Origin: Plasmodiophora brassicae
Taxonomy: Eukaryota
Assembly: GCA_036867785.1 (NCBI GenBank)
Contig: CP145417.1
Coordinates: 1-64,000, forward strand
DNA length: 64,000 nt
Direction of reading: 5' to 3'
Every line of letters begins with the position of its first letter. The first letter of the stretch is position 1. A program made the position numbers and the translations under genes. The notes below the pieces were generated by a model. The model was not told the DNA's origin and ran no database searches. It worked only from the letters and a program-made list of their open reading frames with translations. Of this stretch, positions 344 to 25,400 are shown piece after piece.

Positions 344-3300
344 TCCTGCGAAGACCTGTCCTGGGATTCGTTCCGCAACGTCTCTGGCTGGCTTCTGTCT
401 TACTTGTGCTGGCACGACCACGTGCCACCACACCAAGGCATGATTGAACGCCATCGGCGAGAGGTCGTATCTTGCCTGCAGGCTTCACCGGCAGGCCTTC
501 GTGACAAATTCGACCAATGGCTTCGGCAGACCACTGCGACACCATCGTCTGGTGCACAGATGATGCGTCACTGTAGCCTGCTCTCTACATCATGCGGCTT
601 GTGGCCGCTGGATTTGATGGTCACAGTGTGTTTGAGCACCGATCCTGTCATCGTCGACCTATTCTTGGATTCCCCAGTGTCGGTCGACAACGTGGACGCC
701 CTCTTCAACGAATACGGTGTCCCGTTCGGCTGCCTGTGGGACGTCGTCCACCCTCTGATCGACAGACGGCGGTCCCACATCATCGCTTTGCGGTTTGGCA
801 CGTCAGACGTCGTTGCTGTAAGCCTTTGCGATTCCTTGTTCCTGTACGTTTCTGACTTCGTATGTAGCGGTTAGGAAGGGGCGACGACTCGTTGCCGGTC
901 AAACGAGTGGCAGCTTTGGCGGTACTGTCTACAATAGCGCTACCCCTGATGCACCTGCGGAACAGCTCGCCGATGCTCTGGCTCGAAGTACTGCCGTCGT
1001 CAGCGGTACGTGTCAGTTGTGAAAGGGCGCCGGCCCCGATGATAATGGTCTGCGACGGACATGGCCAGCCTAAGCAGGAGTGCACCGGGCACAAAGATCC
1101 AGTCGAACACGGGGACGAGGACGACCGCACAATAGAATACCTGGAGCGTATCAGGGATGCACACGAAGCCGCTGAGCGTGACGAAGTCGGTGATGATTGC
1201 GAGGATCCGGTGGGAGACTCCGAGTGCGATGACCCTGACCCAGGCGACGCAATCGGGGACGACGTCGAAACTGATTCTGACTCTTCGTATTCGATGGATG
1301 ACGGCGACGTCCCTGACCCCAGCAATGTCGACGGAAGCGATGACGAACGCATCGACCCCTCCGTAGACCACCTCGTCCGCCAGTCGACGCCGCCCTGTGC
1401 TAGTGCACCAGCAATGGATCTGTCCACGTTTGAGGTCATACACCTCGACGAATTCGCCGGCGAACGCTTCTGGGATGTCTTCGGATCCCCCAGGAAAGAG
1501 GCCTTCTGCGGCCGGTTCCGCTTCGATCTGGCGGATGAGGCGCGTCGCGCCTCAGACGCTCACGGGGGTCGCCCGCGATTGCGGCCGGTGTTTGACGTCG
1601 ACTCTTTGCAAGCAATCACGACTTCGATCGGGACCTGGCTGCAGCACTTTCCTGTGCACGAAGCCAAATCGTTTGCCTTCCTGCACATGATGCAGAGGTA
1701 CGGGAACTACCGTGCACGTCAGTCGGATACGGGAAGCTCGGTACACGATCTGCGTGTGCAGCGAGACGACGAGAAGGCGTCGCGGTCAGTGGCGCAGTTG
1801 CCGCGATTCCTGTTGGGTCAGGTTGACTGCCATCCCATGGCAAATGTCTCGATCTTCTTAATCGCTGCCGCACCCCGTTGGACGCATCGTTCCCTCAAGC
1901 AGCACTGCTCCAGGGCGGTTTCCGCTGCGTTCAGTGCCTGCCAAGCAGATCTGCCGGACGAGATCAACGACTACCTTAACCAGTTTGGGGCCCACCGCCG
2001 CCCCGTGGTTATGCCACCTTCGTCCGCCCGCGCTGTCCTGGAGGCTCTTGAGGATGAGCTTGACGGCTCCATCATGGTGTTGATGCAAGCGCTAGGTGTG
2101 CGCTCGTTGATGAAAATGACGTGTGTCGCCGACGTTCTCGAGGTGCGCCGCTACTTGCGAACGTTCTGGCCGTCAACGTTAATGGACTGCGCGCGCTTCG
2201 ACATCGGGTCCAACGTGTCGGCCGAACCCTTCCCCGACAACACAGCCGTTGCCGTCTGCCGCGACTACTCAGCGCTGCGAGATCTGGACGTCGGCTGTGG
2301 CATCGCGCCACGCAAGAGCTCGTACTATCCGGTCGGGGAGGTCGCCGGGTTCGGTGGATGCAAGTCACGTTGCAGTTCCGTTATGGCATCCGCGCGCTCG
2401 TGCTACAACGCGACCGTGTCGCAGCGCACGCGGGATCGTGGGCGCGTTCTGGTGGACCCCGTCCGCTTTGCCCACATCGGTACCCTGAACGCGGCCGTCC
2501 GCGCTACGTTCGAGAAGGGCAAGGTCCGGAAGTCGATCGCTGGGTTGCCCGCCGCGCTTAGGAAGTACGGCCCGGTCAAGAAGGAAGACGTAAAGCGGGC
2601 GTTGAATCCGGTGAGGGACGCGATGCGGAAGCGTATCCGATTCTGTCGCCAGATGGCCGCCGAACGCGTTCCTGTCGTGCACCGCGTTGAGTACGTCGCT
2701 AACCTGACCATGCGCCATGCGTGCTTCAACAGCATGTGGCAGGAGGCCGATGGGTTCAACGACGATGCCACGTTCCTGCTGCTGGACGCGGAAGCCGTCT
2801 GGGCACATCTCCGGCGGAAACTAGAGCAGTATGTCGTGTTCCCTCGCAAGATGTACCGCGCGATGTTTCGCCGGCTGGAGCGCGGTCGCCGGTCTCCTTT
2901 CGTGTCCAACATCGATCGGCGGTCGCTGAACGCGCTGCAGATCTTCGAAGACTGTTTCAATGCGGTTTTTGACGGCTCGTCCATCAACCCAGGTCGGTTC
3001 TACCACCGGGCCACGCCGGACAGCAATGTCGGGCCGTGGCTGTCGAACGGGTCGCCTCTCGACTACGTGTCTTCGTCTCTGCAGTTTGGCCGCTTCTTCG
3101 TCGACGACACGTACATGGATCCGCTTGCCCTGGTCATCAACAAGGGCGAGTTTATGAATTTCATTCAGAGCCTCGACTACGTCGACATGATGTCGACAGT
3201 CCTGCGGATCTCCGTCAGAGGAAACCGGCATGCGCTCCACTACCTGGTCCAGTCGTGGTTCCTGGTCATCTCATCAGGGCTGAGCTCAATGCTGACGCCG

Positions 3301-24700: not shown

Positions 24701-25400
24701 GCGACAATCCGTACCAGTGCATGGCGTTCGCCCAGAAGTGTTCGGCGCGTCTGCAGACATCCTGCAGGATGCATCGACGATGTCGCAACAGTCGCTGGTA
24801 CGGCGATCAGGCGCCTCGGGACTTCGAGGACTTGCGACATGCGATGCCGAACACAGCGCAGGCAGGCAGGCACCGCTCGACGCGCAGACAGGGAGGTCGG
24901 CGACGACCCTGTCTGGTCAGCCAGCCACCGGCGCATGGTGAAGGGCAGGGGCGCGGCATGCCAAGTCGTAGCAATCGTCGGACGACGAGTGCGTCACCAG
25001 GCCTGCGCGACGTTGTACCCATCCCGCTTCGACGGCAGGCGACGGCAGACCTGTGACGTCGAGCGTGTCAGAAGGCCTGCGTGACTGTGCAGCAGGCGAT
25101 GACTTGTACCTATCGTCAAGGTGCAGTACGATCTCGCAGACGTGTCGGAAACGTCGCCTGGCGTCCAGCAGGCCGTATTGAGGTCGTAGCGGTCGCGTTG
25201 ACCCGTGCCTCTGTTCGGCGGCGGCGACGTCGGCGCGAGCGGACAGGGCAGGCCGGCGCATCTGGGTCTGGACCACTTGTGCCGTACGGTGCCGACCGGG
25301 CGGCAGTGTACGATATCGCAGTACGCGGCGTTGGCGGCAGCGTCGTCGGGTCGTCTGCCGTGCTGACGACGCCCACCACGGAGATGGCACCTGCTCGGCA
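21765..25400 (+). repeat. Mosaic of degenerate non-coding subtelomeric repeats
   Basis: Recurring motifs (CCTGTCCATCACATGTCAGAGGCCA; GTCCTGTGCAGAACGTGTGAGG at ~24418 and ~24660) and homology to 6900-7780. Confidence 0.6.
22998..23575. repeat. Degenerate, relatively AT-rich tandem repeat, ~170-bp period, ~3.5 copies
   Basis: AATTCGGCACT...GCGGG...GTATTGTTC..GGTTAC..TCCC recurs at ~23000, 23166, 23338 and 23505. Confidence 0.8.

Follow-up and report, generated by a model that had tools for sequence, protein, structure and literature searches.

Four described systems resemble the elements considered here, a family of large protease-encoding units without a reverse transcriptase (RT) at the chromosome ends of the clubroot parasite Plasmodiophora brassicae. 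Terminons, with Athena and Coprina, are likewise large, co-oriented, 5'-truncated and intron-keeping units that sit at chromosome ends and carry extra enzyme open reading frames (ORFs) (PMC8557442, PMC5537684). HeT-A of Drosophila, in its association with TART and TAHRE, is RT-less, is interleaved in the same polarity with long interspersed nuclear elements (LINEs) and has a long 3' tail with spliced antisense RNA (PMC5537684, PMC4700185, PMC1636488). MoTeR1 and MoTeR2 of Magnaporthe combine a telomeric non-long-terminal-repeat element with a non-autonomous partner and show truncation, de novo healing and internal relics (PMC7367193). Finally, Ulp1-bearing Cryptons (CryptonS and CryptonF-2_PS; PMC3212892) and DIRS-type elements (PMC3266345) offer parallels in C48 protease cargo and in integration at short matches without target duplication, respectively. 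We compared the protease units with these systems starting from the left tip of contig C7 (CP145417.1), the first 64 kb of which (64,000 nucleotides, hereafter the window) were analyzed as part of a P. brassicae assembly of 25.28 Mb in 20 contigs.

All 40 chromosome ends (named C1L to C20R) were compared, 10-70 kb each and 830 kb in total, read telomere-first. Homology between ends stops repeatedly at the same bases, in the window at 8029, 10698, 10867, 13640 and 25556, which are the last bases of the five pieces that make up positions 343-25556: unit A, a unit with a 169-bp array (unit C), a 170-bp Crypton remnant, a 5'-truncated APE-type LINE and unit B. We are confident that the pieces were added to the tip independently of one another and form a stack in which A and B represent a family of RT-less units of at least 12-13 kb, built of a tandem array, a single spliced gene that probably encodes an Ulp1-orphan-USP polyprotein, a long tail and a fixed end facing the centromere, with C and E units as relatives by their tails. 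The telomere (41.5 copies of AAAACCCT, positions 1-342), the motif of which agrees with that reported for P. brassicae (10.1101/2024.04.03.587992), runs straight into the coding sequence of the 5'-truncated RT-less unit A (343-8029, plus strand), and we read the capping of this truncated copy as de novo. Unit A ends here in ...CCTTTAC/CGT and elsewhere in ...TTTAC/CAT, and is 99.8-100% identical to the copies at eight other ends, nine ends in all. Unit C (8026-10698, plus strand) consists of 11.4 copies of the 169-bp repeat and about 670 unique bases, ends in ...CCCCTTG/TAA and is non-coding here. The last 170 bases of a Crypton-like element together with the terminal CCAT of A (10696-10867, plus strand) precede the LINE, designated RT1 (10865-13640, plus strand), the APE part of which is lost. 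Unit B (13643-25556, plus strand), truncated within an intron, follows across a joint made of one telomere repeat and an AAGCC seed (13630-13643), and ends in ...AACGGGT/CAT, five letters short of the usual ...GGGTCTACT/CAT.

An initial annotation of this tip had recognized head-to-tail, same-polarity and variably 5'-truncated units at the chromosome end, which is what the comparison confirms, with a mobile unit of about 13 kb (12,931 bases at C14R and C20R). Its limits for the two blocks, ~7780 and ~25400, have to be moved to 8029 and 25556. It was right that A starts in mid-coding sequence after the telomere and that the start of B falls within an intron, immediately upstream of the Ulp1 core; its further claim that both blocks lie directly after telomeric sequence is true of A, which abuts the 1-342 tract, and not of B, where the single repeat plus AAGCC belongs to the 3' joint of the LINE. 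Telomere tracts at the 40 ends abut many different sequences, often in the middle of ORFs (gypsy elements, LINEs and units), and AAGC adjoins the tract at 17 of the 40 tips. This tetranucleotide is likely a telomerase seed and may reflect the boundary of the telomerase template. A gene for a telomerase RNA-binding domain on C15 indicates that the host retains telomerase.

Fixed ends were located with sequence patterns requiring CAT or TAA (the E-family pattern left its last two letters free), and the count of irregular ends is therefore too low; five or more irregular or inverted ends are known (the window's B at C7L, C6L 25170, C17R 12836, C15L 7212 and C4L 18202). The search returned 51 fixed ends (9 A, 4 A+Crypton, 16 B, 14 C and 8 E) at 24 of the 40 chromosome ends, representing 46 distinct joints. 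All 51 point toward the centromere, the orientation also shared by the LINEs and the Penelope-like elements. The initial annotation had named the lack of telomere repeats at the junctions as an observation that would count against its proposal, and in this respect it fared poorly: no fixed end is followed by telomere repeats (0/51), the one flagged case being a LINE-end remnant that served as a target. The sequences joined include LINEs, gypsy elements, host-like genes and other units.

For 23 of the 46 distinct joints, the target could also be examined in uninterrupted form; 19 of them were testable after exclusion of the 4 E joints. In 17 of these 19, the target bears the last three letters of the unit (CAT or TAA) before the joint, against background frequencies of 1.5% of positions for CAT and 0.6% for TAA. 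The overlap comprises three letters in 12 cases, four in 3 and five in 2, but never two, and the two misses share 0 and 1 letters. One further target, a C7 paralogue, also has CAT; the paralogue of the DNA beyond the end of the window's B stops short of the joint, and that target does not enter the count. Since the target letters vary with the end of the joining unit (CAT for A and B, TAA for C), base pairing fits better than a fixed enzyme preference. Moreover, the joint at 8029 retains the target's mismatch (CGT), and the missing last five letters of the window's B fit internal priming. No A-run was present at any of the 46 distinct joints. Identical joints at some pairs of ends (C7L/C14R, C16L/C9R and C5L/C10R) show that recombination also copies joints between ends. 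C5L and C10R are 99.3% identical across the whole 10 kb read, which represents a recent tip duplication with no unit joint in range.

The protease units are concentrated at the tips. Among 50 matches to the large orphan ORF of the units, the 13 longest are without exception located no more than 34 kb from an end and oriented toward the centromere. The remaining 37 are shorter; some of these are internal and lie on either strand. Protein matches of at least 200 amino acids within the ends point to the centromere in 64 of 65 cases (these are matches, not copies). Four B-type copies are at least 99.9% identical to the copy at C14R. The longest unit seen comprises a 144-bp array, the gene, the tail and the Crypton, with 12,931 bases common to C14R and C20R at 99.8% identity and different DNA beyond the shared fixed end. 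No RT was found between the gene and the unit's own end in any of 14 units bearing a USP domain (0/14), the true 5' end of the units lying outside the DNA read; three further USP-bearing units have no end in range and are not among the 14. A LINE RT match occurs within 1.5 kb after the unit end in 5 of the 14, so there the LINE is the target. The 169-bp array of unit C recurs at six other tips, with 70 copies at C12L (C12:380-12387) capped directly by the telomere. Similarly, C6:391-2961 holds 18 copies of a 144-bp repeat, open as an ORF of 48-amino-acid repeats and capped directly by the telomere. A third orphan-ORF subfamily (~30% identity), with a USP-like remnant and the end ...AATT/CAG, lies 8249-15264 from the end at the right tip of C14, and an A tail at the right tip of C3 contains a 5.4-kb insertion (1407-6802 from the end) with a DUF4218-like, CACTA-type ORF.

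The homology of A and B, their common plus-strand orientation and their shared gene order, all proposed initially, were borne out, with 65% identity over 2305 nt of the large ORF, 68% over 1068 nt of the USP region and 68% over 390 nt of the tail. The common order is Ulp1 (present here only in B), a middle exon, the large orphan ORF and a USP/UCH domain. The Ulp1/C48 SUMO-protease domain of B maps to 13662-14270 on the plus strand (PF02902, E=5.4e-22). The orphan ORF spans 868-4902 in A (1344 amino acids stop to stop, plus strand), after a predicted intron at 818-874, and 15980-20116 in B (1378 amino acids stop to stop, plus strand), with no Pfam match in either. The USP/UCH-type deubiquitinase domain of A (5589-6632, plus strand; PF00443, E=2.7e-7) has visible Cys and His boxes and a predicted intron at 6306-6371, and the USP-like domain of B (20586-21625, plus strand) is restored to frame by a predicted intron at ~21303-21370. 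Differences between A and B in the large ORF amount to 0.34, 0.27 and 0.56 at the first, second and third codon positions; their excess at third positions indicates that the orphan ORF is kept by selection. Ulp1, orphan ORF and USP likely form one polyprotein gene: RNA-like contigs splice onward from the orphan ORF, a contig alone being no proof of a single transcript.

Searches with the orphan ORF against Pfam, the ESM Atlas (twice) and PDB profiles were all blank as to its function, and word-index searches gave nothing new. Its relatives number 10 among 1.84 billion proteins, one of them full-length (P0001, for which no DNA context was recovered) at 24% identity, and its two AlphaFold models have confidence scores (predicted local distance difference test, pLDDT) of 33 and 32. 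Judging from the families of the flanking domains, the SUMO protease and the deubiquitinase would most likely counteract silencing or the capping of ends.

Introns were assessed in contigs from three read runs whose RNA status is a software guess (hence "RNA-like"), with one DNA run for comparison and using only the parts of B covered by contigs. The GT-AG intron of B at 15958-16018 (plus strand) has been removed from RNA-like contigs but is present in each of the three genomic copies spanning the site. The intron positions match between A and B, as had been claimed; the A intron at 818-874 and both USP introns are sequence predictions only. The long tail of B (21630-25556), built of 173- and 242-bp repeats, gives rise to a multiply spliced minus-strand transcript with introns of 52-59 nt. 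No long ORF was found in the three minus-strand frames of this tail, and a tblastx comparison of the A and B tails revealed no single frame. Overall, minus-strand GT-AG joints of 47-59 nt in the B tail and the 3' part of RT1 occur in the three RNA-like runs and not in the DNA run. The 3' half of RT1 (10865-13640) is covered in one run by very deep spliced minus-strand contigs, and antisense control of the LINE is possible. Antisense RNA with several introns is described for TART (PMC1636488), and spliced antisense RNA is reported for HeT-A too (PMC5537684). In the genomic copies, none of the classified intron sites is joined and 53 are retained (43 in units and 10 in RT1), the rest being unclassified. 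This uniform retention argues against abundant antisense RNA as a template and against ordinary spliced retrocopies.

We favor, with a probability of roughly 0.45, a reading in which a resident RT acts in trans and copies the RT-less units onto uncapped ends, with unspliced RNA as the template and three base pairs for priming. Chromosome ends would often break or lose their cap, and an unspliced sense RNA of the unit, ending at the fixed base, would base-pair through its last three or more nucleotides (CAU or UAA) with the exposed chromosomal 3' terminus. A resident telomeric retroelement, either one of the three APE-LINE families or an endonuclease-less Penelope-like element, would then provide the RT in trans, and the RNA would be copied onto the end, after which telomerase would cap the new end or the next unit would land inside it, and ectopic recombination could later spread blocks between tips. 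Copying in trans explains the polarity, the absence of target duplication, the subfamily-specific target letters, the mismatch kept at 8029 and the incomplete end at 25556. RTs of both kinds reside at tips in this genome, and Penelope-like RTs, as described in PMC8557442, keep introns and move intron-containing genes in trans. The boundaries, polarity, target letters, intron retention and absence of an RT in cis on which this reading builds are direct observations, to which it adds an RNA template, an enzyme and a role for the proteases as proposals.

Several observations weigh against copying from RNA. No intron-less copy was found among the classified sites, unlike ordinary LINE retrocopies, and neither poly(A), a hammerhead nor a telomere repeat was found at the unit ends. 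The last 110 nt of the units show no consistent folding signal, only B1 reaching z=-2.7. The LINE joints, with their one telomere repeat, are of another kind than the unit joints. The composite of A and a 2.5-kb Crypton joined three targets at the same CAT, where an RNA end set from upstream should have moved. Later joins and healing account fully for the variable 5' ends, which therefore give no sign of RT stalling. Sense read-through RNA is absent from the contigs, which cannot show one, and the model requires unspliced RNA of at least 12 kb, with arrays of up to 12 kb.

A possible, if less probable, course of events is a DNA-level, one-ended crossover between a fixed end and a matching trinucleotide near another tip, which would replace that tip and would be catalyzed by the orphan-ORF enzyme or a borrowed tyrosine recombinase. 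The invariable retention of introns and the sharp three-letter threshold, with no two-letter cases, suit such a process, and DIRS-type elements are described as recombining at a 3-bp junction without target duplication (PMC3266345). Blocks of several units are common to two tips as far as a fixed end, beyond which the sequences differ, as in 12,093 bases with three units at C16L and C9R; however, later ectopic recombination can also yield shared blocks. The orphan ORF, being under purifying selection, needs a job, and yet no catalytic motif, homologue or fold emerged for it in the searches run. Oomycete Cryptons carry Ulp1 genes (PMC3212892), but the sole recombinase found inside a unit belongs to a Crypton that is dispersed in the genome, is bounded by CTGTA/CTTTA ends of its own and was inserted a single time. 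Neither a reciprocal product nor a two-ended complete copy was identified. As to a DDE DNA transposon, Pfam detected no transposase domain, and no copy among the sequences offers the complete second end from which terminal inverted repeats and target-site duplication could be read. It is doubtful that the protease units constitute a new class of one-ended DNA elements, in which the ~1,350-residue orphan protein, aided by the SUMO protease and the deubiquitinase of the unit, swaps the element onto tips. If true, a one-ended swap at a three-letter match, with the old tip discarded and telomerase sealing the other side, would explain a constant turnover of the chromosome ends of this pathogen.

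The Crypton-like element is dispersed in the genome on both strands and is absent from most A and all B copies; its assignment as a tyrosine-recombinase element rests on sequence motifs, Pfam being blank. Full A+Crypton copies occur at C14R, C16R and C20R. Two derived sites are common to all three of these full copies, so the Crypton was inserted once just inside an A end, and repeated targeting of A ends by the element was ruled out. Across the genome, matches to the orphan ORF and matches to the recombinase are not found side by side, in searches that overlook distant relatives.

Quite improbable, in our estimate, is a true Terminon-like element, in which an endonuclease-less Penelope-like RT in cis lies upstream of the arrays and has been lost from every truncated copy. 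The longest A and C copies end in telomere-capped arrays, which places their real 5' end beyond, and intron retention fits such RTs. An intact Penelope-like RT without an endonuclease, with a coiled-coil-like ORF upstream, is encoded at C15:920505-922601 and has 396 relatives at E<=1e-10; among the chromosome ends, the Penelope-like query matches only C15R and C5R. At two loci, C15R and an internal relic on C10, a C-type tail or end comes directly after such an RT, but five other relics have no unit tail in the 3 kb read for each (the internal relics read amount to one 6-kb and five 3-kb stretches). Furthermore, most of the 120 listed relatives of the C15 RT lie on ~3-kb contigs, which suggests a widespread small stand-alone element. 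The unit ends also lack the hammerhead and telomere repeats reported for Athena and Coprina: a core-and-stem scan of all chromosome ends detected no hammerhead at the A, B or C ends and one at the C5R Penelope-like element. Rfam was blank over 124 kb although C5R was included, and is thus insensitive here. A hammerhead-like core in the 3' region of the C15R element was rejected as non-canonical; this core, with an extra base, also occurs in a C4 relic. By contrast with the units, the element at the right tip of C5 (274-1480 from the end) combines an endonuclease-less Penelope-like RT with a hammerhead core, complete with its pairing stems, and some five telomere repeats, after which comes a truncated B. 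It is the classical Athena/Coprina pattern as presented in PMC8557442, found in a rhizarian and separate from the units.

Ordinary subtelomeric duplication, in which ectopic recombination or break-induced replication would have multiplied a host family of protease genes and which had been thought to fit equally well, is largely refuted and has little probability left. Introns are kept, and the identical joints at some end pairs show that recombination occurs; the fixed ends with their three-letter joints, 46 distinct ones at diverse targets, speak against duplication as the source of the arrangement. The proposal of the initial annotation that protease gene, spacer, array and LINE RT form a single unit of more than 13 kb can practically be set aside: A, array and RT follow in this order in the window and A also precedes RT1 at C14R, but three fixed ends (8029, 10698 and 10867) intervene between A and the RT, the 169-bp array belongs to a separate third unit, RT1 is cut at 10865 with varying predecessors, and none of the 14 units contains an RT.

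That an RT lies between A and B was correctly noted, the RVT_1 match of Pfam (E=1.2e-20) beginning at 10825 in the window. Its supposed role as an endonuclease-less partner of A does not hold, for the LINE is cut at 10865 and other copies run into the APE domain, namely the C1L and C15R ones, as do contigs from two runs; the partial APE match of the C1L copy (E=3.9e-5) is under the cut-off. RT1 has five copies at 99-100% identity, and the unit that precedes it at C7L/C14R is not the one found at C15R. RT1 itself showed no ORF1; RT2 at C8L has PF03372 over the cut-off and an upstream ORF. Three LINE families reside at the tips, RT1 and two related ones (~37% identical), and although they lie beside the protease units, they have no 3' end in common with them. 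At each of four different targets, RT1 terminates in the same single telomere repeat and shares 0-1 letters with the target; the ends of RT2 and RT3 consist of CCT and telomere-like letters. RT2 shows the unit-like type of joint twice, with 5-letter overlaps.

Proximal to the stack, the window contains on the minus strand two paralogues (25697-29638 and 33771-36179) with 126-bp exon-intron repeats that encode leucine-rich repeat (LRR)-like units behind a signal-peptide-like start, and the joint of unit B lies a short distance outside one of them. Relics of older LINEs and of inverted tails within the chromosome, at 31749-33125 and 36655-37249, mark earlier end positions or rearranged pieces. 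An intact chromovirus-type gypsy ORF of 1651 amino acids with matching 198-bp terminal stretches occupies 53527-58482 on the minus strand; the family is frequent at tips.

Of the known systems, Terminons had been offered as an analogy, and layout, polarity, 5' truncation and introns do agree, whereas an RT in the unit, a hammerhead and telomere repeats at the 3' joint do not. As Terminons are portrayed in the accounts cited above, the protease units differ in lacking the Athena RT, the hammerhead and the reverse-complement telomere repeats at the 3' end, and in joining non-telomeric DNA at CAT or TAA; by the tests run, the protease unit is not a Terminon. The comparison with HeT-A, as those sources present it, is limited by telomerase, which the host here keeps, by the intron-bearing protease gene and the three-letter target rule of the units, and by their lack of an oligo(A) joint; no Gag domain was detected by Pfam. 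According to PMC7367193, MoTeRs have telomere repeats as their insertion site and ends in common with their partner; neither holds for the protease units, although the stability of short interstitial tracts described in that source fits the single repeat at the LINE joints. Unlike Cryptons and DIRS-type elements as characterized in the cited papers, the units have no recombinase gene of their own and are one-ended, polarized and confined to tips, the Crypton present being a passenger. Our literature search, with subscription papers, supplements and Repbase outside its scope, found no such elements described for plasmodiophorids, and the accessible portions of P. brassicae papers refer on this subject only to "sub-telomeric repeats" and general repeat counts. 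Thus, RT-less protease units joining tips at a fixed three-letter overlap are a kind of end-adding element for which we found no description. A SUMO protease fused to a deubiquitinase on such an element suggests an action on end protection or silencing. Units cut into host-like genes near tips, including the secreted-type LRR gene in the window, and may thereby drive subtelomeric variation between isolates. At least 24 of the 40 chromosome ends of this major crop parasite carry the units, beside three LINE families and two Penelope-like elements and with telomerase present. With three joining signatures side by side, a telomere tract in the Penelope-like element, a single repeat in the LINEs and a three-letter match in the units, access to chromosome ends by means other than telomerase becomes testable within one genome.

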